Shown: positions 16,706 through 56,857, numbered from the stretch's first letter. The stretch: 64,000 nt of DNA from an uncultured Pseudomonadota bacterium (GCA_963736005.1 CAVTNB010000001.1:1056001-1120000); one strand, 5' to 3'. Made by a program: numbers and translations. The notes: generated by a model from the letters alone, not told the origin.

Positions 16706-18256
16706 TTAGTCGGGTTTGGAGAACCAACCCGAAGGCTCCACAGCCAAGTTCACGTTGATCTGCTTGACTTCAGTATACGCCTCGAAACCGTACGTACCGA
16801 GTTCCCGGCCGATGCCCGACTGTTTGTAGCCGCCCCATGGCGCTTCATTATATGTGGGGTGATAGGTGTTGATCCAGGTTATGCCGGCTCGCAGTTTGCG
16901 GATGACACGATGAGCCTTTGCGATGTCGTTCGTGAAGACGCCGCCGGCCAATCCGTAGATGGTATCGTTGGCGAGTTTGATCGCCTCTTTCTCATCCTTA
17001 AAAGTTTGCACGACGAGCACCGGGCCAAAGATCTCTTCTTGAACGATCCTCATGTCCGGCTTGGTATGCGTGAAGATCGTTGGCTCGATAAAGTTGCCCT
17101 TGCGCCCCAGCTCTCCTGGCAGACGGCCCCCACCGCACTCAAGCTTGGCGCCTTCTTCTATGCCTGTCTTAATGTAGGCTTCGATCTTTTCCTCATGCGC
17201 GCGACTGACAATCGGCCCCATTTCGGTTTGGGGATCGAAACCATCTCCCACACGGATTTGTTTTGCTCGATCGACGACCGCCTTCACGAATTTGTCGGCA
17301 ATCGACTGTTCCACGAGCAGCCTCGATCCTGCCGAACAGACTTGACCGGCGTTGGCGAAGATGCCAAACAGCGCGTAATCAACTGCGGTGTCGAAGTCGG
17401 CGTCAGCGAACACGATGTTTGGTGATTTGCCGCCCAACTCGAGCGAAATCTTCTTGAGATTGCCGACGGCGGCTTGCATGATCGCACGGCCCGTCTTCGT
17501 GCCGCCAGTGAACGCAACTTTGTCAACCAGCTCGCTGGCTGCAATCGCATGGCCGACGACTGGGCCCGACCCGAGGACAATATTGACGACGCCCTTGGGG
17601 AAGTCCAACTCCTCGATCCAGGTCGCGAGGCGAAGAGCGGTCAGGGGCGTCAGTTCCGATGGCTTGAGCACGCAGGTATTGCCAGCCGCAAGCGCAGGTG
17701 CGAGCTTCCATGATGCCATCAACAAGGGATAGTTCCAGGGAATAATCTGTCCGCACACACCGATTGGTTCGCGCACCACCATTGTCTGAGATGCCGCAGG
17801 GACATCGAAAGTCTGGCCGCTTGGTTTGGTCGCAAGCCCGGCATAGTAGCGGAAACAGTTAGCGGCATCCGCCATGTCGTATTCCGTCTCGCGCAGGGGC
17901 TTGCCGTTATTGAGCGTCTCGATGCGCGAAAGCTCGGTCGCGTTTTCATCGATGCGTTCGGCGAGACGAAAGAGCAATTTCGCGCGATCTTGCGCGAGTG
18001 AATCACCCCACGGTCCTTCGTAGAACGCTTTGTGAGCGGCCCGGATGGCGCGCTCGGCATCTTCTTTCGTTCCCTCTGCGACCTTTGCAATTACCTCGCC
18101 GTTCGCCGGGTTCACGAGATCGCGGGTTCCACCATCGGAGGCAGCGGTCCATTCGCCGCCGATCCACATGAGAAATGCGTCGCCCTTGCGTTTGAGATTC
18201 TTGAACAGCTCCGCGGCACGAGGCGCGGAACTCGGCTTGGCTTCAGCGGTTGCCAT
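16706..18256 (-). CDS. NAD-dependent aldehyde dehydrogenase (aminoaldehyde/betaine-aldehyde type)
   Basis: IPWNYP, LKPSE, FTGGT, LELGGKSP, GQVCSAGSR, EEIFGPV; AAGGA upstream of the ATG at 18256. Confidence 0.93.
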   Translation of the reverse strand: MATAEAKPSSAPRAAELFKNLKRKGDAFLMWIGGEWTAASDGGTRDLVNPANGEVIAKVAEGTKEDAERAIRAAHKAFYEGPWGDSLAQDRAKLLFRLAERIDENATELSRIETLNNGKPLRETEYDMADAANCFRYYAGLATKPSGQTFDVPAASQTMVVREPIGVCGQIIPWNYPLLMASWKLAPALAAGNTCVLKPSELTPLTALRLATWIEELDFPKGVVNIVLGSGPVVGHAIAASELVDKVAFTGGTKTGRAIMQAAVGNLKKISLELGGKSPNIVFADADFDTAVDYALFGIFANAGQVCSAGSRLLVEQSIADKFVKAVVDRAKQIRVGDGFDPQTEMGPIVSRAHEEKIEAYIKTGIEEGAKLECGGGRLPGELGRKGNFIEPTIFTHTKPDMRIVQEEIFGPVLVVQTFKDEKEAIKLANDTIYGLAGGVFTNDIAKAHRVIRKLRAGITWINTYHPTYNEAPWGGYKQSGIGRELGTYGFEAYTEVKQINVNLAVEPSGWFSKPD

Positions 18257-18316
18257 TTTCTTGATTCCTTTTCGACTTGGTTGAAATCGGTTAAGGCGTT
18301 TGCCAGCCAATCACCG

Positions 18317-19735
18317 CTACATTGCGGCGAGGCACTCCGCCAACGCCTTGCAGACGTAATCCGCCTGGTCCTCTGTCAGTGTCAGCGGCGGCTCGACCCG
18401 AATGACGCGGGCGTTGACGAGCGTGCCCGAGACAAGCACGCCGCGGTCGAGCATGGCTTTGCTGAGTTTGAAGCCTAGCTGGTCGTTGGGGAACTCCATT
18501 GCCATGAGCATGCCCTTGCCACGAAGATCGATGATGATATTGCTGTACCCTCGTGCCGCCTCGCGCAGGCCCGCAAGCATGCGATCGCCCATGCGCGCGG
18601 CTCGTTCGGGCAGCCGCTCCTCGATGAGGACATTGATTGTCGCAAGTGCCGCCGCACACGCGAGCGGGTTGCCCCCGAACGTCGTCGTGTGCAAGAACGG
18701 GTTGCCAAATAAGCGCGAGAAAACAGCTTTGGTGCCCACCACTGCGCCGGCCGGCATAACTCCGCCGCCAAATGCTTTGGCCAGACACATGAGATCAGGA
18801 GCGACACCCCAATGCTCGCAGCAGAACATCTTGCCGGTGCGGCCCATCCCGGTCTGCACTTCGTCCAAAATAAGCAGCGCCCCGAACTCATCGCAGAGTG
18901 CGCGCACACCGGGGAGGTAGTCGTCGCTCGGAATATTGACGCCGCCCTCACCTTGAATCGGCTCTAAGATCACGGCGCCAACTTCTTCTCCGACCGTCTT
19001 GAGCGTCTGCATGCGCCACCGTAACGCGGCGAGATCGTTGAAGGGCACGTGCTCGATGTTGGGCAGCATAGCCCCGAACGGACGGCGAAACTCGCCCTTT
19101 GCGCTGACGGAGAGCGCGCCCATGCTCTTACCGTGAAAGCCTTTCGTCGCCGCAACAATTGTTTGCTTCGCCGGATCGAAAGCGCGCGCGAGCTTGAGTG
19201 CGGCTTCGATCGTCTCGGTTCCGCTATTGCAGAAAAACGCGTATTCAAGGTTGCCCGGCGTGAGCATGGCAAGTGCCTTCGCGAGCATCGCGCGCAGTGG
19301 ATCGAGCAAGTCTTGGCTGTGCAAGGCCTGCCGTTTGAGCTGGTCCGTGACGGCCTTGACGACCTTGGGGTGGCGATGACCGACATTGTAAATTCCAAAA
19401 CCGCCGAGGCAATCGATATATTCCTTGCCGGCGACATCTCGATATGCATTCGCTCCGGCGTCGCCCCATTCGACGACCGCTGCGGCGTGCTCAACAGCCG
19501 TGGCCTTACGGTATTCGAGAAACCCCGGATTGACATGGTCGCGGAAGCCCTTGACCGTTTCCGCGATGACCCACTCCGCGTCGTCCGCGTCGATCTCCGG
19601 CTTCGCGATAAGATCGAGCACGCGCTGCGTGTAGGCAAAGACCTCTGCATCCGGGCGCTTGCCGTGCGTGTTGCGGTCGGAGTCGATCTGAAGATCAGCT
19701 GCTTTATTTTTCTTTTGACTATCGATAATTTGCAT
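18317..19735 (-). CDS. patA: Putrescine aminotransferase (class III PLP)
   Basis: HVNPGFLEYRK, IDCLGGFGI, HSQDLLDPLRAMLAK and PFLHTTTFGGNPLACAAA match E. coli PatA/YgjG as I recall it; PLP Lys in CLAKAFGGG. Confidence 0.88.
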   Translation of the reverse strand: MQIIDSQKKNKAADLQIDSDRNTHGKRPDAEVFAYTQRVLDLIAKPEIDADDAEWVIAETVKGFRDHVNPGFLEYRKATAVEHAAAVVEWGDAGANAYRDVAGKEYIDCLGGFGIYNVGHRHPKVVKAVTDQLKRQALHSQDLLDPLRAMLAKALAMLTPGNLEYAFFCNSGTETIEAALKLARAFDPAKQTIVAATKGFHGKSMGALSVSAKGEFRRPFGAMLPNIEHVPFNDLAALRWRMQTLKTVGEEVGAVILEPIQGEGGVNIPSDDYLPGVRALCDEFGALLILDEVQTGMGRTGKMFCCEHWGVAPDLMCLAKAFGGGVMPAGAVVGTKAVFSRLFGNPFLHTTTFGGNPLACAAALATINVLIEERLPERAARMGDRMLAGLREAARGYSNIIIDLRGKGMLMAMEFPNDQLGFKLSKAMLDRGVLVSGTLVNARVIRVEPPLTLTEDQADYVCKALAECLAAM

Positions 19736-19752
19736 GATGCCTTTTCGTTGTT

Positions 19753-21039
19753 TTAGGTTAGGACGGCGGAGACCGCCTCGTCGAGGCGATCCAACGCGCT
19801 CTCGAGATCTTCTTTGTCGATGATGAGCGGCACGAGCACTCGAATGATGTTGCGTTTCACACCGGCGGCCATGAGCAGCAATCCTCGACCGCGCGCTTCT
19901 TCGCCAATGCGCTGCACGATTGCAGACCCGGTCATCTTGCCATGGTCTTGGAATTCGAGCGCTCTCATTGCGCCGAGGCCGCGCACGTCCCCGATGGCGC
20001 GATGCTGCCGCTTGAGCTCGTTGAACCTGTGTTCGAGCCGCTTGCCGATTTCCACGGCGCGCTCGAGAAGATGGTCTTCCTCAATGATATCGAGGACAGC
20101 CAGCGCTGCTGCACATGCTAGCGGATTCCCCCCAAATGTTCCACCAAGTCCACCAGCGGTGGGAGCGTCCATGATCTCAGCCTTACCTATGACGCCCGCA
20201 ATGGGAAGCCCGTTGGCGATGCTCTTGGCTACTGTGATCAGGTCGGGCTCGACCTCCGCGTGCTCGATCGCGAACATCTTCCCGGTGCGCCCATAGCCTG
20301 ACTGAATCTCATCCGCAACCAGCACGATGCCGTGCTCCAGCGTGATCGCCCGCAGCGCCTTGAGGAACTCGATCGGAGCAGGCACAAACCCGCCTTCGCC
20401 AAGCACTGGCTCGATGACCATCGCAGCGATGCGATTGGGCGCGACTTCTGATTCGAACAGCTCGTTGAGCGCCTCGAGCGCCCTGCGAGCGCTCCAGCCA
20501 TGGAATTCGTAGGGATAAGGTACGTGGTAAACCTCGTTGGCGAAGGGCCCAAAATTTTGCTTGTATGGATTGTTCTCGCCCGTCATCGTGAGCGCCAACA
20601 ACGTTCGCCCGTGAAAACTATGATGAAACGCAACCACGGCCGGGCGCCCAGTGTGCATGCGGGCGATCTTGATCGCGTTCTCAACGGCCTCCGCGCCTGT
20701 GGTCACAAAGAATGTCTTCTTCTTCGACGGACCAGGCGCGAGCTTGTTCAAACGCTCCGCCAACTCCACATAGCCTTCGTACATTGCAACTTGGAAGCAC
20801 GTGTGCGTAAAGCGCTCGAGCTGTTCGGCCACGGCCTTGCGCACTTTGGGATGAGAGTGGCCGACATTGACCACCCCGATCCCGCCAACAAAATCGATGT
20901 ATTCCTTGCCGTCGACATCCCAAAGCTTCTCACCGAGCGCGCGGGCAGCAAAAATTGGATGCGTGTTCCCTACGCCTCGTGGAATTTCAGACGCGCGTAA
21001 ATCGAGCAGTGCCTTTGTTTGCGACGCCGCGAGGGCCAT
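19753..21039 (-). CDS. gabT: 4-aminobutyrate:2-oxoglutarate aminotransferase
   Basis: FTHTCFQV, TGAEAVENAIKIAR, EPVLGEGGF, ADEIQSG, GGLGGTFGGNP. Confidence 0.92.
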   Translation of the reverse strand: MALAASQTKALLDLRASEIPRGVGNTHPIFAARALGEKLWDVDGKEYIDFVGGIGVVNVGHSHPKVRKAVAEQLERFTHTCFQVAMYEGYVELAERLNKLAPGPSKKKTFFVTTGAEAVENAIKIARMHTGRPAVVAFHHSFHGRTLLALTMTGENNPYKQNFGPFANEVYHVPYPYEFHGWSARRALEALNELFESEVAPNRIAAMVIEPVLGEGGFVPAPIEFLKALRAITLEHGIVLVADEIQSGYGRTGKMFAIEHAEVEPDLITVAKSIANGLPIAGVIGKAEIMDAPTAGGLGGTFGGNPLACAAALAVLDIIEEDHLLERAVEIGKRLEHRFNELKRQHRAIGDVRGLGAMRALEFQDHGKMTGSAIVQRIGEEARGRGLLLMAAGVKRNIIRVLVPLIIDKEDLESALDRLDEAVSAVLT

Positions 21040-21056
21040 GGTCTACCTTTCGAACC

Positions 21057-21081
21057 GTCGCGAATAAATTCGCGACACTAC
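21057..21081 (-). repeat. REP family B in the gabT 5' leader
   Basis: GTCGCGAATAAATTCGCGAC-ACTAC. Confidence 0.8.
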
Positions 21082-21111
21082 ATTTTGGGCGTTAAATGGG
21101 GGTTCAATTAA

Positions 21112-21187
21112 AGTGTACCTGGTTGCGGGGGCAAAAACTATGTAAGTAGAATACAAAAATAGCACCGATATTCATATGGGATTACAA
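21112..21187 (-). promoter_or_regulatory. gabT promoter: putative PucR-family operator(s) and -10 TACACT
   Basis: Minus strand TTGT-ATTCTACTT-ACAT (21156-21140), 22-bp gap, TACACT (21117-21112); weaker site TTGT-N9-TGAA 31 bp upstream. Confidence 0.7.
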
Positions 21188-21189
21188 GA

Positions 21190-22791
21190 ATGACCGTTCG
21201 CGAGGCTCTAACCCTGAATTCCCTCGCTTCAGCCAAGGTTGTAGCTGGGCAAGATGGCTTGGGGCGGGACGTCCAGTGGGCTCACGTGGTCGACATGCCG
21301 GATCCTGCGCCTTGGGTGAGGCCTGGTCAGTTGTTGCTCACGACTGGATTTGCATGGCCAACGCAAGAGCGCGAGGTAACGTCGCTGGTTCGGCTTTTGT
21401 GCAATCGAGGACTCGCAGCCGTGGGCCTCGCGGTGCCGGGCTATCTCAAGAAATTTCCCGACACGGCCCGTGAGGAAGCTGACAAACTTAGTCTTCCCTT
21501 GATCGAGATTCCCTTTGAAGTACCCTTCGCGCAGATCACCGAGGAACTGCACCGCACGATTCTAGCCGAACAATACAAGATTATCGAGCGTTCGGAGCAG
21601 ATCCACCGGACGTTGACCCGCGCTGCGGCAGAGGGTAGCAATCTGAGCGATCTCGCGCGCACGCTTGGGGAATTGCTCGATCGTTCCGTTACTCTTGAAG
21701 ATCCCGAAGGCAAGCTGTTGGCGTCCTACTCGACCGAGGACGATGCAAAAGATGCAATCCGTCGCCAAACCCTAGACGATAAACAAACTCCGGCTCATCT
21801 CACCCAGGCATTAGAGGCGGCAGGGATGATGGACGACATCCGCGCGAGCACCGGTCCCTTGCGCATTGCGGCGATGCCCGATCTTGGTTTGGGAGCTCGT
21901 GTGGTCTGCCCCATCAGGCTGGGCTCCGAACTTATCGGTCTCGTGTGGATCATCGAGGGCGAGAAGAAACTCTCCGAACTTGACTTTCGCGCAGCCGAGC
22001 ACGCGGCGCTTGTGGCCGCCGTCCACGTGGCGCACCAGCGCGAACTGGCGATGACGGAAGCCCGCTTGGGCTATGCATCCTTTCTGTCACTGCTCGAGGC
22101 TGAAGATGACGACCCTCAAGCCATTGAACGGGCAAGGCTCGTCGGGTTTGACCCAGATGGGAGCCACCGCGTGGGCATCTGTGTGATCGCCGAGCCGCTC
22201 CCCCTCACCCGCGATGGATTTCTGCACCGAGAACGTGTGGCAAACCAGCTTGCCCGCATGTTGCGCAGCACGGGTACGAAACCGCTCCTCACCGCGTCAC
22301 TCAACCATGTTACCTTCCTGTTGCCCGAAGGGGTGGACGAAGGTTCCCTGTGGTCCGGCCTGGGCGATCCCTCAGTGCGCATGGTGCTTGGCCGCTCCCA
22401 CCCGGGGACCGCCGGGGCCAGGCGCAGCTATCGCGAAGCACGGTCTCTTTTAAGTTACACGGATGGCTCCACCGTTCGCATGTTTGAAGACGCGCTGGTT
22501 CCTCGGGTTTTGATGGGAGACGCAAGCGCCCACGAGGCGTTCATCGATCATATTTTTGGGCCGCTGCAGAAACGCAAAGATGGTGCCATGCTGCAGTCTG
22601 TCTTGCTGGCGCTCGCGAAGCACGGCTTCGCTTTAAAGACGACGTCTGAGGCGCTTGGCATCCACCAAAATACGCTACGCTACCGACTCGGCAAGGCACT
22701 GGAGGTTTTGCGCGTCGACCTTGACGACCCAGAGGCTCGTTTTCAGCTTCAATTGGCCGCCAGAATTTTGGATTTTTCGAATAAGAAATAA
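21190..22791 (+). CDS. PucR-family transcriptional regulator
   Basis: N-terminal WAHVVDMPDPAPWVRPGQLLLTTG; central GAF-like region; C-terminal HTH LGIHQNTLRYRL. Confidence 0.92.
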   Translation: MTVREALTLNSLASAKVVAGQDGLGRDVQWAHVVDMPDPAPWVRPGQLLLTTGFAWPTQEREVTSLVRLLCNRGLAAVGLAVPGYLKKFPDTAREEADKLSLPLIEIPFEVPFAQITEELHRTILAEQYKIIERSEQIHRTLTRAAAEGSNLSDLARTLGELLDRSVTLEDPEGKLLASYSTEDDAKDAIRRQTLDDKQTPAHLTQALEAAGMMDDIRASTGPLRIAAMPDLGLGARVVCPIRLGSELIGLVWIIEGEKKLSELDFRAAEHAALVAAVHVAHQRELAMTEARLGYASFLSLLEAEDDDPQAIERARLVGFDPDGSHRVGICVIAEPLPLTRDGFLHRERVANQLARMLRSTGTKPLLTASLNHVTFLLPEGVDEGSLWSGLGDPSVRMVLGRSHPGTAGARRSYREARSLLSYTDGSTVRMFEDALVPRVLMGDASAHEAFIDHIFGPLQKRKDGAMLQSVLLALAKHGFALKTTSEALGIHQNTLRYRLGKALEVLRVDLDDPEARFQLQLAARILDFSNKK

Positions 22792-22844
22792 CAGGTAAAT
22801 TGTCCGGCAGATACATAGTCTTAACGACCTGTTAAGAGTACACT
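22768..22844 (+). promoter_or_regulatory. TonB-dependent receptor promoter: putative PucR-family operator(s) and -10 TACACT
   Basis: TTGT-CCGGCAGAT-ACAT (22800-22816), 22-bp gap, TACACT (22839-22844); weaker TTGG-N9-ATAA at 22768-22784. Confidence 0.7.
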
Positions 22845-22862
22845 GGTTGGGGCGGTAGAGGA

Positions 22863-22886
22863 GCGGATCTAAAGGTCCGCTGCTAC
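22863..22886 (-). repeat. REP family C in the receptor 5' leader
   Basis: GCGGATC-TAAA-GGTCCGCTG-CTAC. Confidence 0.8.
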
Positions 22887-22930
22887 ACTAGATTTCTTAG
22901 CGTTCGTTGCGTTCTAAGGGAGATGAGCCT

Positions 22931-25900
22931 GTGTCGCTTCGCAAGCTAGCGGTTGTCGCATTTGCCATCGCGTTGTTCGGATTGTCGGCGCTTCCCGGCT
23001 CCGCTGGAACCACCGGTGGTATTCACGGAAGGGTGGCTGACATTACTAGCGGGCAACCCATTGCCGGGGCAGATGTCACCGCAGCGTCTCCGTCGCAAAC
23101 TGAAACGCGGTCGACCGACAGCTTGGGGTACTACGCGTTCATTTCGCTGGCGCCCGACACGTATACCGTCACCGCGAAAAAGGATGGCTACACGCTCGAG
23201 CAAGTTCCCGGCGTCACGGTCATCTCCGACCAGAACCGCGCGGTTGATATCAAGATGCAGTCAGCGCTCAAGACGATTGCACGCGTCGCAATTCGGGCGA
23301 CCGGAGGCCTCGTTCGCTCAGGCGTCGTGAGCGACGTTTATTCCATCAACGCAGCCCAGCAAAAAGTGGCTGCTCCCCTCGGTGGGGCTGGAGCGTTGAA
23401 CCAATCCTACGGGGCCATCGCGAGCGCGCCGGGCGTCAACTACGATCAAGGCCAGCAGGGCTGGTACCAAAATGTTTATATCCGCGGTGGAGACATCGAT
23501 CAAGTTGCCTATGAGTTCGATGGCGTTCCGGTCATTCGCGAATCTGACCAAGGCGCGGTCACGACACTGACGAGCTTGGGGCAAGCGGAGGTACAGGTGT
23601 ACACAGGCGGCACTCCCGCCTCTGCCGATGCACCGGGCCTCGCAGGCTACATCAACCAAGTTGTCAAGAGCGGCTCCTACCCAGGGTATGCAAGTTTCAC
23701 TGGCGGCATCGGTGGGCCGACGCTCTACAATAAGGGCACCTTGGAAGTAGGAGGCGCAACCCCAGATCGGCGTTTCTCATACTACGTGGGCACGCAACTC
23801 GTCGCGCAGGATTACCGCTTTGGCGACCAGTTCAACGGCGCGAGCAACCCGCTTTTTTTCTATCCGATCGGGATCGGGAATCAGTTTCCGCCTCCCGCAG
23901 GCCCGTTTGCAGCAATCCCAACTCCGTTAAACACCGCCGTCTGGGACGGGTCCTCCCAGTGGTTGTTCGGGCCGGGCACTGCAAACGCGATCGCGAGTGT
24001 CGGCGATCAGGAAACGATTGCTAACTTCCATTTTGGGCTGCCACACCGTCACGACTCGAGCACAGACGACATCCAGCTGCTCTACGATAACAGCCTGATC
24101 GTCCAAAAGTTCTATGGATCGGCGTTCGATCAGGGCCTTCCCGCAATTGTGGCTGAGAACGGAGCGCCACTAGGTTACTTTGATGGCTATGCCTACAACG
24201 GGCAAGTGTTCGCGCCGCCCGTGGCTGGACTCGTGGGGCCAGACTTATTCCCGAATTCGCCGCAAAATCGTGCGCAGTTTTCGCAACTGCCAATCCTAGA
24301 GCGTGAGGGCTCCCAAAATGGTGTTGCGCTCAGCAAGTTTCAGTACCAACGCAATATTAATGAGAGATCTTATCTGCGCTTTGACGCATATACGGACTAT
24401 GCAACCTGGTTCATCAGCGGGCCGGTGAGCGCCAATTTGCCTTTCGGGGGCCAGCTCCCGGACTACGAGGTGAACGAGCATAAATATGGCGGCAAGCTCG
24501 ACTACTCGAATCAGCTCAACGACAAGAATCTCCTCGAGCTTACCGCTTCGTATCTTACCGCACATCTCGAGACGTTCTCGGGTCAGTTCGGCACATTCTT
24601 GGATTACGCGGAGCCTACATCAAATCTCGTCGATGCACGTGGCAATTGCTACGATTTCACAACAGGGAATTTTGCGGATTGTTTTCCACAGTTGGCGCCC
24701 GCTGGCTATCCGAACCCGACATCGCAGGGCTGCTTCAATCCTGTGCTTGGATGCACGGGGCTTGTTCCGGGGATGCCGCCGCCGGGCAGCCCGGCAGCAA
24801 ACAACAGCGCACGCTGGCTCGTCACCGAACCTGGGCCCAAAGCGCAGATCGACACAGTCAAGCCGTATTTCTCAGGCTTCTCCGCCAACGATCAGTGGCG
24901 ACCGAACGACAAGCTGACGATGAATATCGGTGCGCGAGTCGATCTTTTCGACTACCGGCTCGACGACTTGGTCGACGGCTATCCTGCGCGCGCCTTCTGG
25001 TACGCCGCGTACAACCGCGAGAATTGTTTTGGCCCCGGCTTCAACGCGCCGTACCTGGGTGCGCTGAACGCAGCAACCGGCGCTTTTGCGTGCAATCTCG
25101 GTGGCACGCACACGAACCTGCAAAATTTCGGCGGAGGTACGATCTCGGAACGAATCTGGCAGCCCCGCTTCGGCGCAACGTATTCGGTCAATCCCGACCT
25201 GGTCTTGCGCGCGACCTACGGACGGTACGCACGACCAGCTGCCACCTCGTATCAAGAGTACAACGTCATTCAGCAAGACTCGCCACAGTTTATCAGTACT
25301 TTCCTCAACATGGGTTACAATACGCCCATCCACTACCTGCACGCAGATACGGCGAACAACTTCGATTTCTCAGTCGAAAAGCGTCTGCATGGTACCGATA
25401 TGTCGTTCAAGTTGACGCCATATTATCGCACCACGCAGGGGCAAATTCAGTTCTTGTCTTTGAACGCGCAAGGCGTGTTAGCCGGTGTGAATGCGGGGCA
25501 GCAAAACTCGTACGGAGTAGAGTTCGCGTTCGACAAAGGCAACTTTTCGACTGACGGATTTGCGATGCAGGCCTCGCTCACGTATCTCAACAGCACGATC
25601 AAGTACGGCCCCCAACCGAACGGCCAAAATGTCATCGACCTCTTGAACAACTTCATCGAACAATACAATTCGTTCACGTCCGCATGCGTGACGCCAAACC
25701 CGACAATTTGCGGCGCCTTTGGCGCGAACAACGCACACCCAACCTTTACCAACGGGACGACTGGCGTGGTGACAACCAATCCGTACTACAACCTAGCACC
25801 GCAGCCACTATTCGATCGCAACGCGCGCTACACGACCTACAGCACGATCCCGGCACCTTTCAATAATGCCAACAGTTTTGCGACCCCATTCGCGACCTCG

Positions 25901-26437
25901 CTGATCCTCAACTACAAGCATCAAAAGTGGTCGGTGACACCAAGCTTTACCTACAGCATTGGGGCATCGTATGGGTCGCCGCTCGTGTGGCCCGGGTACG
26001 ATCCAAGCTCGTGTGGCAACGTTTCCGCCGTCTCGCAACCAGCTCCAGACCTAACGCCAATGGGTTGCGCGAGCTCTATCTTCATACCAGATAAGTATAC
26101 AGGTCACTTTGATGCTCTCGGCGCCTTCCAACAGCCGTCACGGCTAACAGCAAACCTTGCCATTGGTCTGCACGTAAGCGATCGCATTGATGCGACGCTC
26201 ACCGGTTCGAGCTTGATCGATCGCTGCTGGCAGCGTGGCTTCCCATGGGATTCTCAAACGACGTGCGTCTATGGCCAACTCGCGTCGAACTTGCTTGCAC
26301 CGGCGGGCAACTTCGTGGCCAATCCGCCAATCCAGCTGGCTTACCCGTATGGCAGTTGGTACAATAATACAGAAATCGGCCAAGAGGGGCAGAAGTCGCC
26401 CACTACTTGGTCGCTGGAAACGACGTTTAAGCTCTAG
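22931..26437 (+). CDS. TonB-dependent receptor-like outer-membrane protein with an N-terminal carboxypeptidase-regulatory-like domain
   Basis: Signal peptide; GTTGGIHGRV...LAPDTYTVTAKKDGY; plug-like YIRGG...YEFDGVP...GYINQVVKSG; barrel motifs NDQWRPND and QPRFGATY; C-terminal TFKL; GTG start assumed. Confidence 0.85.
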   Translation: MSLRKLAVVAFAIALFGLSALPGSAGTTGGIHGRVADITSGQPIAGADVTAASPSQTETRSTDSLGYYAFISLAPDTYTVTAKKDGYTLEQVPGVTVISDQNRAVDIKMQSALKTIARVAIRATGGLVRSGVVSDVYSINAAQQKVAAPLGGAGALNQSYGAIASAPGVNYDQGQQGWYQNVYIRGGDIDQVAYEFDGVPVIRESDQGAVTTLTSLGQAEVQVYTGGTPASADAPGLAGYINQVVKSGSYPGYASFTGGIGGPTLYNKGTLEVGGATPDRRFSYYVGTQLVAQDYRFGDQFNGASNPLFFYPIGIGNQFPPPAGPFAAIPTPLNTAVWDGSSQWLFGPGTANAIASVGDQETIANFHFGLPHRHDSSTDDIQLLYDNSLIVQKFYGSAFDQGLPAIVAENGAPLGYFDGYAYNGQVFAPPVAGLVGPDLFPNSPQNRAQFSQLPILEREGSQNGVALSKFQYQRNINERSYLRFDAYTDYATWFISGPVSANLPFGGQLPDYEVNEHKYGGKLDYSNQLNDKNLLELTASYLTAHLETFSGQFGTFLDYAEPTSNLVDARGNCYDFTTGNFADCFPQLAPAGYPNPTSQGCFNPVLGCTGLVPGMPPPGSPAANNSARWLVTEPGPKAQIDTVKPYFSGFSANDQWRPNDKLTMNIGARVDLFDYRLDDLVDGYPARAFWYAAYNRENCFGPGFNAPYLGALNAATGAFACNLGGTHTNLQNFGGGTISERIWQPRFGATYSVNPDLVLRATYGRYARPAATSYQEYNVIQQDSPQFISTFLNMGYNTPIHYLHADTANNFDFSVEKRLHGTDMSFKLTPYYRTTQGQIQFLSLNAQGVLAGVNAGQQNSYGVEFAFDKGNFSTDGFAMQASLTYLNSTIKYGPQPNGQNVIDLLNNFIEQYNSFTSACVTPNPTICGAFGANNAHPTFTNGTTGVVTTNPYYNLAPQPLFDRNARYTTYSTIPAPFNNANSFATPFATSLILNYKHQKWSVTPSFTYSIGASYGSPLVWPGYDPSSCGNVSAVSQPAPDLTPMGCASSIFIPDKYTGHFDALGAFQQPSRLTANLAIGLHVSDRIDATLTGSSLIDRCWQRGFPWDSQTTCVYGQLASNLLAPAGNFVANPPIQLAYPYGSWYNNTEIGQEGQKSPTTWSLETTFKL

Positions 26438-26446
26438 TCGCGCTAC

Positions 26447-26498
26447 GTAGCGGGCGACTGTAAAGTCGCCCTCGTCGTTGCGCGAATTTGTTCGCGCA
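26447..26498 (+). repeat. GTAG REP variant (26447-26471) and family B copy (26479-26498), minority orientation
   Basis: GTAG-C-GGGCGAC-TGTAAA-GTCGCCC and TGCGCGAATTTGTTCGCGCA. Confidence 0.75.
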
Positions 26499-26512
26499 CG
26501 TGAGGAGGCTCC

Positions 26513-28138
26513 ATGGCGCGCACCGCCTTGACGAATTTGTTCCAACGCCTGCACGCCGTGCACGCAGAGGCAGCGCATTCTGGTTTAGCGGTGGACGCGG
26601 TCGACGAGCTCCAGCGCACCCGGCGGCTGCGGCGTGCCGAGTTTCTTGCGGGCGCGGCGAGCGCCGGGGCCACACTTCTGGCTGCCTGCTCGTCGAAGCC
26701 CGCGCAGACTGTCATGAAGTCGGCGGGTGCACCACGAATTCTCATCATCGGAGGCGGTCTCGCCGGTGCGTCCTGCGCATATCGGTTGTGGAAAGCCGGC
26801 GTGCCCTTTACGCTGTGCGAAGCCAACTCAGCGTTTGGCGGACGCACGTGGACGTTGCGCAATTTCTTTGACGCCGGGCAGCTGGTCGAGCACGGCGGTG
26901 AGTTCGTATCGAGCGAGCACACCGCTTTGCGCGACTTGTGCGCCGAGCTTGACCTTCCGCTTGAGGATCTGCGCGCCGCGCAGCCACGGGATACCGAAGA
27001 AATTTACTATGTACGCGGCGAGAAGTATACGTGGTCGGAGATGCTGCGCGACTACGCGCCGATCTATCCCTCCATTGCAAATGCGGCCAAAGCGGCCCCG
27101 TTTCCCACGCTCTATAACCACTACACGCCGGCTGGTCTTCGCTACGATCGCATGTCGGCGCGCGAATTCATCGTCTCGACGATTCCCGGTGGTCTTAACT
27201 CGAGAATCGGTTGGTTGATGGACCTCAACGTCACAACCGAGAACGGCGGAGACTCAACCGACCAGAGCTCGCTCGAATACATCTACATGCTCGGGTACAT
27301 GCAAGCCCTGACCGGCCACAAACATCAGGCATTCTATTTGGTTGGCACCGACGAGCGCTATCACGTGATCGGAGGCAACGATCAAGTGGTCGGCACGATG
27401 ATCAAGCGCTTACCCCAGGCTAGCCTGTTTCCCAATCATGCTCTCGTCTCGCTCGTCCGGCGATCCGACGGCTCGTACACTGCCACGTTCAAATCTGCAC
27501 TGCAAACGACCGAGTTGCACGCAGATCATGTAGTGCTGGCGTTGCCCTTCACAACGCTGCGCAACTGTGATGTTGCGCGAGCAGGCTTTGAGCCCCGCAA
27601 GATCATGTCGATCGACAAACTGGGCATGGGGACGAACACAAAGATGCACGTGCAATTTCGCAATCGCCTCTGGTACACGCTCGGCTACAACGGCTACACC
27701 TATGCCGATAAGGATTTCCAACAGACATGGGAGGCTTCACGCCACCAAGCGGGTGAGGCGGGCATTCTGACGAGCTATTACGGAGGGTCGTGGGGAGCAA
27801 GCTTCAAAGCGCCGTCGTTTGGGCCGGCCTCTCCCCCATACGTCAACGAATTTCTCACCGGTCTCGAACCGATTTATCCGGGGAGCAGCAAAGCCCAAAA
27901 TGGCAAAGCGTACATGGACTACTGGACCGGCGATCCATGGCATCATGGATCGTACTCGTACGGGCGGGTTGGACAATATACAACGTTCATCGGCATCGAA
28001 CCGGTGCGCCAAGGCAACGTGCACTTCTGCGGCGAGCACTGCTCGATTAATTTTGGCGGCTTTATGAACGGTGCGGTGGAAACAGGTCAACGCGTTGCAG
28101 CGGTCATCGCCAAGGAAGTCGGCGCGCAAGCTGCGTGA
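26513..28138 (+). CDS. Flavin monoamine/polyamine oxidase family protein with a Tat-like/lipoprotein leader
   Basis: IIGGGLAG...EA...GGR, EHGGEF, HFCGEH...GFMNGAVETG; leader RRAEFLAG...LLAAC; GAGGAGG RBS. Confidence 0.9.
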   Translation: MARTALTNLFQRLHAVHAEAAHSGLAVDAVDELQRTRRLRRAEFLAGAASAGATLLAACSSKPAQTVMKSAGAPRILIIGGGLAGASCAYRLWKAGVPFTLCEANSAFGGRTWTLRNFFDAGQLVEHGGEFVSSEHTALRDLCAELDLPLEDLRAAQPRDTEEIYYVRGEKYTWSEMLRDYAPIYPSIANAAKAAPFPTLYNHYTPAGLRYDRMSAREFIVSTIPGGLNSRIGWLMDLNVTTENGGDSTDQSSLEYIYMLGYMQALTGHKHQAFYLVGTDERYHVIGGNDQVVGTMIKRLPQASLFPNHALVSLVRRSDGSYTATFKSALQTTELHADHVVLALPFTTLRNCDVARAGFEPRKIMSIDKLGMGTNTKMHVQFRNRLWYTLGYNGYTYADKDFQQTWEASRHQAGEAGILTSYYGGSWGASFKAPSFGPASPPYVNEFLTGLEPIYPGSSKAQNGKAYMDYWTGDPWHHGSYSYGRVGQYTTFIGIEPVRQGNVHFCGEHCSINFGGFMNGAVETGQRVAAVIAKEVGAQAA

Positions 28139-28140
28139 CG

Positions 28141-28167
28141 AGGGGCGATTTTCCAATCGCCCCCTAC
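28141..28167 (-). repeat. REP family A; its GTAG contains the pepE stop
   Basis: AGGGGCGATT-TTCC-AATCGCCCC-CTAC. Confidence 0.9.
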
Positions 28168-28868
28168 AAGAGGATCTCTGGCTTGATCGATTCTTCTATG
28201 AGTTTGCCGGTGTGCAGGCGCAAACGGTACGCTCGCGCGCGCTGACGTGAGGTAACGATCCGTTCCAAGCGGTCATCGCGGTAGACAAGGGCAACGTTGT
28301 CGTCGGCAGCATAACCTCCAGGCAATCTACCTGACCTCACAAGCTGCCGGTACACCGGACGGCGCTTTGGCTCGCTGTCGTAATGCGGACAGAAACTCCC
28401 TCGTAAAAAGCCAAGACATCGCAGTGGCGCGTAACGACCAGGATACGAATCAGTCACCCCGCCTGAAAACCAGCACAACCCACCCGCGCTTTGACCCGCA
28501 AGCACAATGCCTCGCTCGTAGGCGGTGCGCATCGCCACGTCCAGACCCCACGCTTTCCAGAGGATCAACAAATTGCGTGTGTTACCCCCGCCGACATAGA
28601 TGACATCGTGCTTGAGAACAAATGAATGCAACGGCTCGAGTGGCTGCGCGTACAGGGAGAGGTGAGAAGGTTTTGCTCCGAGCTTCTTGGCCATTTTGTA
28701 GAACGTCGCGATGACGGTTTCCGAGTCTCCGACGGCGGTAGCGACACAGCACACGCGGGGTGACTCGCGCCCGGATTGCTCGAGCACGTATGCACACAAT
28801 GTTGGGTCAGGCTTCGTCGTGGAGAAGCCCCCGCCACCAATCGCGATAATGGTTCTTGCACGGCGCAT
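28164..28868 (-). CDS. pepE: Peptidase E (family S51)
   Basis: IAIGGGG, YVGGGNT, GQSAG nucleophile, SFCPHY. Confidence 0.88.
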   Translation of the reverse strand: MRRARTIIAIGGGGFSTTKPDPTLCAYVLEQSGRESPRVCCVATAVGDSETVIATFYKMAKKLGAKPSHLSLYAQPLEPLHSFVLKHDVIYVGGGNTRNLLILWKAWGLDVAMRTAYERGIVLAGQSAGGLCWFSGGVTDSYPGRYAPLRCLGFLRGSFCPHYDSEPKRRPVYRQLVRSGRLPGGYAADDNVALVYRDDRLERIVTSRQRARAYRLRLHTGKLIEESIKPEILL

Positions 28869-28895
28869 GGAATTCGATACGATAGGCGAATTCCA
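28868..28895. promoter_or_regulatory. Perfect 9-bp inverted repeat between divergent pepE and GNAT genes
   Basis: TGGAATTCG-N10-CGAATTCCA. Confidence 0.55.
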
Positions 28896-28905
28896 AGCTC
28901 CGCTT

Positions 28906-29367
28906 ATGTCGTACCTCATTCGTGAACTTTCCATCGCCGAGCTGCCCGTGGTCACGGATCTCCGGCACGCAATGATTCGAGAGATCGAGGGAGAGGATTT
29001 GGATCTTGAGATTCCAGGGTGGCGCGAACGCTACGTCGCTTTTTTTGAAGGACATGCCCGCAAGTCTCGGGGGGCAGTCTGGGCAGCCGAGCAGGACGGG
29101 CATATCATTGGAATCGCCGCGGCTTATATGCCGACCAATCATCGGTCCGCAATCGTTGGCAGCGAGCAACTGTATATCTGCAACGTGTACGTCGTGCCCG
29201 CGCGGCGCCGTCAAGGGATTGGCAAAGCCTTGACGCTGCACGCGGTAGAATGGGCGCGCACGAAGCATTGCGACGTGGTGCGCCTGCGGACTTCGCGGAT
29301 GGGACGCCCGTTGTATGAGTCGGCAGGGTTCGAGCCATCCGACGAGATGGAGCTTTTTCTCAGGTAG
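28906..29367 (+). CDS. GNAT N-acetyltransferase
   Basis: NVYVVPARRRQGIG acetyl-CoA motif; GRPLYESAGF. Confidence 0.9.
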   Translation: MSYLIRELSIAELPVVTDLRHAMIREIEGEDLDLEIPGWRERYVAFFEGHARKSRGAVWAAEQDGHIIGIAAAYMPTNHRSAIVGSEQLYICNVYVVPARRRQGIGKALTLHAVEWARTKHCDVVRLRTSRMGRPLYESAGFEPSDEMELFLR

Positions 29368-29481: not shown

Positions 29482-29757
29482 ATGCGCCTGCACGTGTGGA
29501 GCTTCGCACTCGCTTGCGCGATCACTGCGTTACTTCTCGGCCTCATCGCGTGGCCCATTCACGCTATGATGATGGCACGTGCGGCCGTCAAATATGGGGT
29601 GTACCGCGGACCTTGGCACAACATGGCAGGACCGCACGCTCCGATGATGATGCATCACGGCTTTGGCGCTTGGCATCTGCTGATTTTTATGGTGGCGGCT
29701 GGCGTCGGGGGTGCGATTCTCGCCGCACTGTACAACGCGTTTGCGGTGCGGCGCTAA
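29482..29757 (+). CDS. Small His/Met-rich two-TM membrane protein; start may be 29443
   Basis: Two hydrophobic segments flank HAMMM...WHNMAGPHAPMMMHHG. Confidence 0.65.
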   Translation: MRLHVWSFALACAITALLLGLIAWPIHAMMMARAAVKYGVYRGPWHNMAGPHAPMMMHHGFGAWHLLIFMVAAGVGGAILAALYNAFAVRR

Positions 29758-31187
29758 GCGCTTAGCTCCTCAACTTCGCTCACCAGGTCCGCCTGAATTG
29801 CCTTGATCGTGTCGGGCTGGCGCATGCAGACGTACGCGAATCGCGCGAGCCCAATCGCAAGCAACGCTAAAAACACATACGGCAAGACGTTGTAGGGCGG
29901 CGCGGGCACCGGATAGACGCTGCCAATGGTTGCGATCGCCAGCATCGCGATGGACAAAATCGCCATGACGATGGGCGTCGCGCTCATTTCTCCCCGTCGA
30001 CGCAAGTAGAGCGGCGAGCCGATCGACACTAAGATGTAAGCGAACAAAAAGCCGAACGTCGCAACGGACCCCAGGTAGCCAAACGCGTCGAGCAGTGCCG
30101 CGTGCGAGATGATCAGGCCCAGCGGCGCCAGCAGGACGACGGCCGCCGCAATGGTCACCGCGACGTGGGGTGTTGCATGCACCTCGTGCGTGCCGGCCGC
30201 AGACGCATGCACGAGTCCATGTTTCGACATTGCGAAGATCACTCGCGCGCCGGCGTTGATGCATGCCAACGCACAGGCGAAAAAGCCGACGGTCGCGCCG
30301 GCCGCAAACAGGGTACCCAGGAGAGGAAGTCCAGCGATGTGCGAGAGCACGTTGAGCGGCGCATTTGACTGGCCAAGCGAGGTCGACTGGCCTTGGAAAG
30401 CATCGACGAGTGTGTACGACATGAAGGTGAAGAACGCACCGACGGCTATCACGGTCACGAGCACGGATCGGGGAATGGTACGCAACGGATTGCGCGCCTC
30501 ATGCCCGAGCGCGGTGGCACTCTCAAATCCGACGAAGCTAAAAAACGCAAGCACAAGCCCCTGGAGCATGGCTTTGGGTGACGCTCCCACAAGCGAGAAC
30601 TGCGCAGTGTCATACAACCGGCCGGTCTTGACGTAAAAAGCAAACGCGAGCAGCAGCACGACGCCGACCGAAAAAAACTCCAGACCTAACATGAATTTCG
30701 TCGAGAGTTCGATATCTCTGTACGCCAGGTACCATGCCCCGACGGCCACCGCGATCATGACGACCACCGTCACCACAAGACCCGCATTGTATCCAGAGAG
30801 GGCGTGCATGAGGACGGCAACGTAGTTGGCGGCTCCGCACAACGTCGCTCCACCGGTGATCAGATAGGCGATCACGAGCGACCAACCCGATATGACGCCC
30901 CAGGTTGGTCCCATCCCCTGCGCAACGAAGGTGTAGAGCGCGCCTGGCGAGGCCGACCGTTTTGCGAACTGGTTGATATGGTAGGTGACCAAGAGCAGGG
31001 CAACCGTTGAGAATGCATAGGTCAGCCATAACCCGCCGCCCGTAATAGCGAAGACCGCTGGAATGATGAGGGCCGGTGTCGCGGATGGCGCGATGTTGGC
31101 AACGGACTGGGCCACCACTTCAATGAAGGACAGGCAGTTGCGGCGCAGACCCGCTTGGGGAATGGGCAACAGTCCTTCTTTGATCAT
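29754..31187 (-). CDS. APC-family amino acid/polyamine permease
   Basis: About 12 TM; AQSVANIAP, SPGALYTF, FVGFESA. Confidence 0.92.
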   Translation of the reverse strand: MIKEGLLPIPQAGLRRNCLSFIEVVAQSVANIAPSATPALIIPAVFAITGGGLWLTYAFSTVALLLVTYHINQFAKRSASPGALYTFVAQGMGPTWGVISGWSLVIAYLITGGATLCGAANYVAVLMHALSGYNAGLVVTVVVMIAVAVGAWYLAYRDIELSTKFMLGLEFFSVGVVLLLAFAFYVKTGRLYDTAQFSLVGASPKAMLQGLVLAFFSFVGFESATALGHEARNPLRTIPRSVLVTVIAVGAFFTFMSYTLVDAFQGQSTSLGQSNAPLNVLSHIAGLPLLGTLFAAGATVGFFACALACINAGARVIFAMSKHGLVHASAAGTHEVHATPHVAVTIAAAVVLLAPLGLIISHAALLDAFGYLGSVATFGFLFAYILVSIGSPLYLRRRGEMSATPIVMAILSIAMLAIATIGSVYPVPAPPYNVLPYVFLALLAIGLARFAYVCMRQPDTIKAIQADLVSEVEELSA

Positions 31188-52918: not shown

Positions 52919-52934
52919 TTCCTCTATTTTCAAG

Positions 52935-53030
52935 CGCGCGAATAAATCGCGTGACTACATTGGAATAAATTCGCGAGAGGGGCGATTTTCCAATCACCCC
53001 ACGTTCGTGGACCTAAAGGTCCGCTGCTAC
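52935..53030 (-). repeat. Mosaic REP cluster B, partial B, A, C
   Basis: B at 52935-52958, GAATAAATTCGCG at 52963-52975, A at 52978-53000, C at 53007-53030. Confidence 0.9.
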
Positions 53031-53031
53031 G

Positions 53032-56778: not shown

Positions 56779-56810
56779 GCTTGACCTCCAAGACTGCAGT
56801 CAAATACTAC

Positions 56811-56826
56811 GTTCCATTATAGGAAC
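56811..56826 (-). promoter_or_regulatory. -10 TATAAT flanked by a GTTCC/GGAAC inverted repeat
   Basis: GTTCC-ATTATA-GGAAC upstream of the receptor gene. Confidence 0.5.
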
Positions 56827-56857
56827 AAGAGGCGAACGTATCTATCCTGGAATTCCG

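Follow-up and report, generated by a model that had tools for sequence, protein, structure and literature searches.

A candidate amine-utilisation locus linking a TonB-dependent transporter and a predicted exported flavin amine oxidase to putrescine/GABA genes in an uncultured Eremiobacterota bacterium

Gene content and promoters of the locus

The DNA analysed here is a 64,000-nucleotide window (GCA_963736005.1 CAVTNB010000001.1:1056001-1120000; positions are counted from its first letter) and forms part of contig C1 of a 2.84-Mb genome in 6 contigs that is 84% complete. Its G+C content is 58%, and the host is an uncultured, diderm soil bacterium of the Eremiobacterota. An outer membrane covered with lipopolysaccharide is described for a cultured member of the phylum in the consulted part of PMC9758169. 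Between positions 16,706 and 28,138 lies a candidate locus for the acquisition and breakdown of amines, in which a TonB-dependent transporter (TBDT) and a flavin amine oxidase (AOX) stand next to genes of putrescine and 4-aminobutyrate (GABA) catabolism. Open reading frames (ORFs) and domain scans found its six genes where the first-pass annotation had placed them, with gabT, patA and an aldehyde dehydrogenase (ALDH) gene divergent from a PucR-type regulator, which is followed by the TBDT and a lipobox-bearing oxidase. The features are:

16706..18310, minus strand: ALDH, BADH-like or aminoaldehyde-dehydrogenase-like (PF00171); the true start may lie 3' of the TTG
18317..19735, minus strand: PatA, putrescine aminotransferase (NF008570 equivalog; PF00202)
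19753..21039, minus strand: GabT, 4-aminobutyrate transaminase (TIGR00700 equivalog)
21112..21156, minus strand: gabT promoter module; operator-like TTGTATTCTACTTACATAG at 21156-21138, 20 nt, then the -10-like TACACT at 21117-21112
21190..22791, plus strand: PucR-type regulator, divergent from gabT (PF07905, GGDEF_2, HTH_30)
22800..22844, plus strand: TBDT promoter module; TTGTCCGGCAGATACATAG at 22800-22818, 20 nt, then TACACT at 22839-22844
22931..26437, plus strand: TBDT (CarboxypepD_reg, Plug and TonB_dep_Rec barrel domains)
26513..28138, plus strand: AOX, 541 aa, MAO/putrescine-oxidase-like (PF01593), with a leader, an Arg-rich/hydrophobic signal and a LAAC lipobox

PatA and GabT pass the NCBIfam equivalog cut-offs (NF008570, 685.8 against 612; TIGR00700, 563.2 against 506.65). 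The dehydrogenase scores 615 bits with PF00171, and its top NCBIfam match is BADH (TIGR01804) at 644.6 bits, under the cut-off of 668.6. The transaminase route from putrescine to GABA that had been read into these genes therefore stands at equivalog level for PatA and GabT, whereas the ALDH remains under every equivalog cut-off.

The regulator matches PF07905, PF17853 and PF13556 at 112.9, 57.4 and 57.9 bits, respectively, and has a single gene copy in the genome. Both promoters contain TTG[TG]-N9-AC[AG]T[AG][GA], separated by 20-21 nt from a TACACT-like hexamer. In the window this composite motif reads TTGT-N10-ACATAG, 20 nt, TACACT and is found at 22800-22844 (plus strand) before the TBDT gene and at 21156-21112 (minus strand) before gabT; the promoter architecture that the first reading had held common to gabT and the receptor was thus recovered, with the same operator-like motif and -10 hexamer before both. 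The strict composite motif has 2 matches in the whole genome, one before gabT and one before the TBDT gene, a count to be taken as a consistency check and not as an independent test because these sites were themselves the source of the pattern. In ten mononucleotide shuffles of 1 Mb each, the composite matches numbered 0, 0, 1, 0, 0, 0, 0, 0, 0 and 0. A looser composite pattern was matched in 10 of 17 gabT-side and 10 of 17 TBDT-side orthologous intergenic regions from other genera, some boundaries of these regions being rough.

Two further features lie downstream of the oxidase:

28164..29367: S51 peptidase (minus strand; PF03575, 151 bits) and GNAT acetyltransferase (plus strand; PF00583, 58.5 bits)
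29754..31187, minus strand: APC-family permease (PF00324/PF13520)

The permease is the probable inner-membrane importer of the module, and an orthologue stands immediately 3' of the oxidase in the related loci L003, L006, L007, L011, L013, L014, L042, L044, L049 and others. In the first sample of loci, the S51 and GNAT genes between oxidase and permease were found in the window and in L001 and L020 alone, all of the same genus, and their membership of the module is uncertain. In an unrelated metagenome locus of high GC (L124:6490-7946), an oxidase homologue likewise has two S51-like genes on its 5' side.

Several other elements were considered and set aside. A third operator-like match in the genome (G000:C2:158503) is within an ORF and has no -10 partner. 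The palindrome CGCGAA-N4-TTCGCG was rejected as a locus-specific operator; it has 13 copies in the window against 1.25 expected and 234 exact copies in the genome, many of them between convergent genes. Copies near the locus precede gabT (21059), AOX (26481) and the permease gene (31223). At up to one mismatch, the window sites of this 16-nt palindrome (mostly CGCGAATAAATTCGCG) are at 486, 5096, 11060, 13720, 13873, 15702, 20269, 21059, 26481, 31223, 32017, 32778 and 47342, mostly intergenic and often in the gaps of convergent genes or operons, and its appearance suggests a hairpin, REP-like or terminator-like, or else a site for a global factor. The spacing of CTGGTTG-GGG, judged by eye, was unfit for a sigma-54 promoter, and a scan for consensus sigma-70 promoters and terminators gave nothing over shuffles. 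In the 5' leader of the TBDT gene, a stem-loop (GAGCGGA-N7-TCCGCT, 22861-22882) is located between the -10 box and the start codon; L001 has a hairpin of different sequence at the same position.

Predicted structures of the transporter and the oxidase

The TBDT ORF (22907-26437, plus strand) opens at TTG and would encode 1176 aa; GTG at 22931, behind GGGAGA, is the likelier start and gives 1168 aa. The protein matches CarboxypepD_reg (PF13620, 63.4 bits), PF07715 (27.4 against a cut-off of 23.9) and PF00593 (61.8 against 27). In its AlphaFold2 (AF2) model (pLDDT 80.7), a signal helix and a beta-sandwich (residues 29-109) come before a plug (about 136-245) and 22 long strands, in agreement with the plug and 22-strand barrel anticipated for the receptor. 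All Foldseek hits returned for this model were TBDTs, with PqqU (9c4o), YncD (6v81) and Fiu at the top; the E value of 2.5e-27 is given for the group of PqqU, YncD, Fiu and PfeA. A candidate TonB box, KTIARVAIRA, was picked by eye in a low-confidence linker (model residues 113-124), and in the genome the TonB_C and ExbD models score over cut-off 7 times and twice, respectively. The domain scan reported no SusD family; the gene 3' of the TBDT gene encodes the PF01593 amine oxidase.

Paralogues of the receptor elsewhere in the genome have as neighbours S9 peptidases (twice), M1 and M48 peptidases, a creatininase-family protein and an APC permease, and several have no informative neighbour, so the idea that every TBDT paralogue is paired with an enzyme was true only in part. 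The paralogue nearest to the in-cluster TBDT clade (L030; G000:C1:2016000-2032000) is flanked by a creatininase-family amidohydrolase on one side and by an M48 peptidase and an IclR regulator on the other, possibly another module for the uptake of a nitrogen compound. Within the window, on the minus strand at 50987-59593, a LuxR-type AAA_16 and GerE regulator (56858-59593), a CarboxypepD_reg TBDT paralogue (53032-56778) and an S9 prolyl-oligopeptidase with PD40 repeats (50987-52933) repeat the three-part layout of the amine locus; this module may serve peptides.

The oxidase matches PF01593 at 150.7 bits (cut-off 19.8), and a strong GAGGAGG lies 5 nt 5' of its ATG. The N-terminal sequence reads MARTALTNLFQRLHAVHAEAAHSGLAVDAVDELQRTRRLRRAEFLAGAASAGATLLAAC, followed by SSK. 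The leader, of about 70 residues, consists of a conserved N-terminal helix, an Arg-rich and hydrophobic signal and a lipobox, the Arg-rich RRLRRAEFLAGAAS preceding ATLLAAC (LLAAC at residues 55-59) and the SSK after it. Where a twin-arginine motif is expected the window oxidase carries RRLRRAEFLAG, and the orthologues of L006, L007, L011, L014 and L017 have canonical RRxF[LI]. In orthologues the Arg-rich stretch is retained, and after it come F-L/I-A-G-A and a hydrophobic run rich in Ala and Gly. From these features the oxidase is predicted to be exported and, being a flavoprotein, would likely travel by twin-arginine translocation (Tat).

The helix of about 35 residues ahead of the Arg-rich signal, MART-P/A-L...L-x-R-L...H (window 26513-26630, residues 1-40), was modelled at pLDDT 73-89. 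It is common to homologues of 35-40% identity on unrelated contigs (L074, L078, L082, L087, L094, L095, L098, L106, L117, L127) and could be a chaperone-binding or signal-anchor element.

In the AF2 model of the oxidase (pLDDT 87.9), the FAD-site motif GxGxxG is represented by IIGGGLAG at residues 77-84. The top Foldseek matches were putrescine oxidase (PuO; 2yg6/2yg3) and a Thermoanaerobacterales MAO (8p84/9h5p; E 1e-33, TMt 0.85-0.86), 9h5p being an MAO crystallised with putrescine. These were followed by MAO-A/B and cyclohexylamine oxidases, with NicA2 and Pnao lower; the ESM Atlas gave nothing beyond generic 'flavin monoamine oxidase family' clusters. Across 37 homologues K377 and Y481 do not vary, and F517 aligns to the Tyr/Trp of MAO and L-amino-acid oxidase (LAAO) in 'GY/W-xxGA'. 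If residue roles carry over from MAO-B, K377 would be the Lys at flavin N5 and Y481/F517 may form the aromatic cage.

The Arg of the LAAO motif 'GAMRIP', which presumably binds the substrate carboxylate, falls on profile position 45, occupied by F131 in the window oxidase (GGEFV) and by M in most homologues. This replacement, seen in the profile alignment to an ancestral LAAO, speaks against an oxidase of the L-amino-acid-oxidase type. Against the AOX profile, maize PAO (1b37) reached E 4e-19, compared with 1e-34 for the MAO/LAAO group, and PAO was absent among the Foldseek matches listed for the model (to rank 50). The conversion of spermidine or acetylpolyamines to putrescine, which the first-pass annotation had considered for the oxidase, found no direct support, the nearest structures being putrescine oxidase and MAOs, which act on primary amines, and not PAO/SMOX. 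The enzyme is an MAO/PuO-type amine oxidase or dehydrogenase, of neither LAAO nor PAO/SMOX type.

Conservation of the receptor-oxidase linkage

The oxidase is present in 21 of the 22 genomes of the host's own family (f1), in 103 of 206 from a second family (f2) and in 4 of 72 sampled from the other families of the phylum, tallies that take in six unpublished genomes. The window proteins were mapped onto 40 loci around oxidase matches, of which L020 and L045 were too short for TBDT adjacency. A TBDT lies in the cluster beside AOX in 31 of the 38 informative loci, and patA, gabT and ALDH are linked in 29 of the 35 that were long enough. In f1 the gap between TBDT and AOX is 10-75 nt. Orthologues of the ALDH, at 66-97% identity, stay adjacent to PatA. 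TBDT-less loci include L008-L010, second oxidase copies in f2 genomes that also hold an in-cluster copy, and L058 and L059, where homologues of 30% identity from other families have no neighbours in common with the cluster. Of five relatives that lack AOX, three have no PatA orthologue (E <= 1e-100), one has a 47% homologue and one has PatA alone, with no cluster.

Of the 16 loci in the first sample that bear a TBDT, 10 also have the PucR gene, as do most in the second sample; in the remaining 6 of the 16, TBDT-AOX is directly divergent from gabT. The synteny predicted at first pass is accordingly kept for receptor, oxidase, patA and gabT across two Eremiobacterota families, but it is incomplete for the regulator, and in one genus (see below) for the TBDT as well. 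The receptor-oxidase linkage is beyond chance.

Phylogenies bear on the nature of this linkage. The 32 in-cluster TBDTs form one clade (FastTree, SH-like support 99), apart from 13 paralogues, which in this tree are those of the window genome only. The oxidases fall into two deep subfamilies with support of 99 each (FastTree, midpoint root). The in-cluster oxidases of f1, including that of the window, belong to subfamily A and group with out-of-cluster f2 copies, and the in-cluster oxidases of f2 belong to subfamily B, grouped with a different set of metagenome homologues; three f2 genomes have a subfamily-A copy elsewhere. As orthologous TBDTs stand beside two oxidase subfamilies, a paralogue has in one lineage taken over the position behind the receptor. 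Such replacement in place argues for functional coupling; it would be difficult to account for if that position did not require an oxidase of this type.

Some individual loci deserve mention. In L013 (G022:C1:99321-100915) the in-cluster oxidase is broken into three overlapping frames; it is probably a pseudogene produced by frameshift, and the TBDT and the other genes look intact. An f2 genome (L055:7454-16182) has a cluster-type TBDT on either side of the oxidase, both within the in-cluster clade. Out-of-cluster subfamily-A copies of f2 occur near a KatG-type catalase-peroxidase (L009:14149-16356) and directly before a multicopper oxidase (L010:8518-10314), neighbours that may be relevant to H2O2 or electron handling.

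A module of omega-aminotransferase, MMSDH and APC permease adjoins the cluster in 7 of the 40 loci, and the MMSDH in these modules passes TIGR01722 (578 and 657 against 448.5). In the window genome the omega-aminotransferase and MMSDH pair is on a different contig. A C3 (beta-alanine) branch of polyamine catabolism would need just such a module.

Oxidase homologues at 33-46% identity were also collected from 80 metagenome loci. The full Eremiobacterial arrangement is repeated in L111 and L144. In L078, L095 and L098 a subfamily-B oxidase lies between an aminobutyraldehyde dehydrogenase (NF010000, 716 and 727 against 615) and a Pot-type polyamine ABC transporter, with a class-III aminotransferase close by; the transporter comprises a PotA-type ATPase (TIGR01187, 369.6 against 355.6), a PotB-like permease and a PotD/F-like binding protein. 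Several further loci contain an ALDH, an aminotransferase or both, and L106 has a GabT at 53% identity. Judged by their gene neighbourhoods, the Pot-type loci form an independent context that ties the AOX family to the use of di- or polyamines, and the survey shows the link to a TBDT to be special to this Eremiobacterota class.

Proposed pathway, alternatives and known systems

The locus is probably a two-operon module for amine acquisition and catabolism in diderm Eremiobacterota. According to this model, an activator of the PucR/GabR type would bind one type of operator 20 nt 5' of a TACACT -10 box and turn on both gabT-patA-ALDH and the oppositely directed TBDT-AOX. The TBDT would carry a scarce cationic amine over the outer membrane, most likely a di- or polyamine of the putrescine/spermidine type. 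The exported oxidase, predicted to be lipid-anchored in this genus, would then oxidise a C-N bond of the amine outside the cytoplasm, with O2 or a cytochrome as putative electron acceptor (no cytochrome c gene lies in the cluster), and yield an aminoaldehyde and ammonium, or a shorter amine. The APC permease may bring these products or the intact diamine inward, where PatA, the aminoaldehyde dehydrogenase and GabT would channel carbon and nitrogen via GABA to succinate semialdehyde. This scheme retains the sequence of uptake, periplasmic oxidation and cytoplasmic transamination first suggested for the locus. That suggestion is supported in part: the linkage, the TBDT fold, the lack of the LAAO Arg and the shared motif agree with it, whereas spermidine cleavage has no direct support, and PucR or the TBDT is missing from some loci. 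More tentatively, the receptor may be the first polyamine-dedicated TBDT, paired with a Tat-exported periplasmic flavin amine oxidase in a locus resembling a polysaccharide utilisation locus (PUL), with a modular enzyme slot in which AOX subfamilies are exchanged; we regard this fuller claim as possible but doubtful.

A number of observations weigh against the model. On the enzyme side, the ALDH is under the aminobutyraldehyde-dehydrogenase cut-offs (NF010000, 509.8 against 615; TIGR03374, 395.9 against 909.3), and with the profile of 37 homologues an ancestral L-amino-acid oxidase scored about as well as the MAOs (6.7e-35 versus 1.9e-34). If a diamine were oxidised in the PuO manner, PatA would be superfluous in part; a triamine (spermidine, homospermidine), if cleaved, would employ all the enzymes, yet the nearest structures do otherwise. 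As regards export, neither the Pfam nor the TIGRFAM Tat-signal model matched window proteins at E <= 0.001, and several orthologues have a single Arg at the twin-Arg position. The lipobox recorded at first pass is present as LLAAC in the window, its genus and some neighbours, but its Cys is missing in many orthologues, L003-L007 and L014 having AxA-type ends. As regards the receptor, the genome contains about 15-20 TBDT paralogues, 8 of them full-length at 38-45% identity, so adjacency of receptor and operon alone proves little. Two loci of one genus (L056, L057) keep PucR-AOX and gabT-patA-ALDH with no TBDT, which makes the receptor dispensable for the pathway. Outside L111 and L144, tblastn found no TBDT in the other 78 of the 80 metagenome loci, and a Pfam scan of 60 neighbour proteins from 22 long loci found none either. 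Finally, the operator pattern was counted on the same sequences that had yielded it, and the locus was found in 7 DNA-type sequencing runs and in 0 RNA runs.

Part of this evidence would suit periplasmic nitrogen scavenging, in which a broad primary-amine oxidase works in the manner of E. coli TynA/FeaB with ammonium as the main gain, and the TBDT raises the flux of amines with no selectivity for polyamines. The oxidase model is nearest to primary-amine oxidases (PuO, MAO-A/B, cyclohexylamine oxidase), the ALDH is broad and BADH-like, and one genus does without the TBDT. We nevertheless think this explanation unlikely: the oxidase is tightly linked to PatA/GabT and not to general aldehyde or aromatic pathways, its homologues occur beside Pot-type polyamine transporters, and a dedicated orthologous TBDT clade is kept. 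The receptor might instead take a larger amine conjugate, such as a polyamine-based siderophore or a hydroxycinnamoyl- or peptide-linked or long-chain polyamine, which the oxidase, with S51 and GNAT in this genus, would process so that the putrescine freed feeds PatA. TBDT substrates are usually too large or too scarce for porins, and PatA is needed only when a diamine is freed inside; the insertion of S51 and GNAT in this genus and the S51 genes near the oxidase homologue of L124 point the same way. Yet the cluster has no hydrolase conserved throughout, S51 and GNAT are confined to one genus, and no siderophore, iron-regulation or Fur-type element was seen; we consider a conjugate improbable, more so than scavenging.

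Least probable of all, in our estimate, is that the TBDT is a mere neighbour, inherited beside the amine genes and importing something unrelated to them, for instance peptides or a metal complex. Such an origin is compatible with the many paralogues, several next to peptidases (S9 twice, M1, M48), with the genus that lost the TBDT and kept the rest, and with the want of a TBDT link for the oxidase family elsewhere; but the composite operator/-10 motif is common to the receptor and gabT and found nowhere else in the genome, only 10-75 nt separate TBDT and AOX in f1, and the orthologous TBDT stays by the oxidase even after the latter was swapped for a paralogue. The two-operon amine module remains the preferred reading.

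The passage of polyamines across the outer membrane is usually ascribed to porins, and we know of no characterised TonB-dependent polyamine transporter. Among the top matches of full-text literature searches there was no account of a TonB-dependent polyamine uptake system, and a further full-text search found nothing joining twin-arginine, flavin, amine oxidase, periplasmic and polyamine. If the fuller claim of a polyamine-dedicated TBDT is true, the passage of polyamines over the outer membrane would here be an active and regulated step and not diffusion through porins. The locus points to a so far undescribed form of amine scavenging. The conserved receptor-oxidase pair, tied to putrescine/GABA catabolism, is a concrete candidate for a new class of TBDT substrate, and one regulator with two operators makes a testable regulon. 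The locus also gives a clue to how the oligotrophic, mostly uncultured Eremiobacterota of soils and peat may scavenge nitrogen-rich compounds, and the exchange of one oxidase subfamily for another at the same position neatly illustrates the evolution of loci of this kind.

Among known systems, the regulatory half of the locus resembles GabR of Corynebacterium glutamicum. According to the consulted part of PMC7652997, GabR is an activator of the PucR type, encoded divergently from gabTDP, and the sites to which it binds are inverted repeats between these genes. In both cases a PucR-type gene is divergent from gabT with operator-like repeats in between. As far as that part of the account goes, the GabR operon provides a GABA transaminase and a permease, whereas the catabolic operon described here contains PatA and an aminoaldehyde dehydrogenase and not SSADH, and the regulator here seems to have a further target, a co-directional operon for an outer-membrane transporter and a predicted exported oxidase.

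The putrescine transaminase route of E. coli consists of PatA (YgjG), PatD (YdcW) and GabT, and gabT-patA-ALDH encodes the same chemistry, at equivalog level for PatA and GabT. It differs in the BADH-like ALDH, which is under the PatD/ABALDH cut-offs, and in the clustering of these genes with envelope components absent from E. coli. The oxidase shares with Rhodococcus erythropolis PuO (2yg3) and the Thermoanaerobacterales MAO the two-domain MAO fold, GxGxxG and, by alignment, the aromatic pair Y481/F517 and the Lys K377; identity is only about 20%, and those enzymes have no signal sequence, unlike the window oxidase with its leader.

MAO-family enzymes that act in the periplasm and pass electrons to cytochrome c are known in NicA2 and Pnao of Pseudomonas putida S16. 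NicA2 and Pnao (6c71, 7u6l) resemble the oxidase as MAO-fold flavoenzymes placed, as predicted here, outside the cytoplasm, and residues 22-109 of NicA2 align to 43-132 of AOX; they differ in acting on alkaloids and in their lower structural rank (TMt 0.81-0.82), and the present cluster has no cytochrome c gene for such a transfer.

In SusC/SusD PULs and TBDT 'CUT' loci, a regulator, a TBDT, a lipoprotein gene and cytoplasmic catabolism are combined. The same plan recurs here, with a CarboxypepD_reg-type TBDT, a lipoprotein gene directly 3' of it and, as proposed, import followed by periplasmic processing. Unlike the SusC/SusD loci, it has neither a SusD-like protein nor a glycoside hydrolase; the lipoprotein is a redox enzyme, and the probable substrate is an amine. 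Also comparable are the nicotine clusters of Sphingomonas melonis TY and Pseudomonas geniculata N1, for which the consulted part of PMC7688666 lists a TonB-dependent receptor gene, tdr. There too a TBDT gene lies within a catabolic cluster for an amine (an alkaloid) that includes flavin amine oxidases, while pathway and taxa differ. The module in the window is real, conserved and apparently co-regulated, and is a new variant among TBDT-linked nutrient loci.

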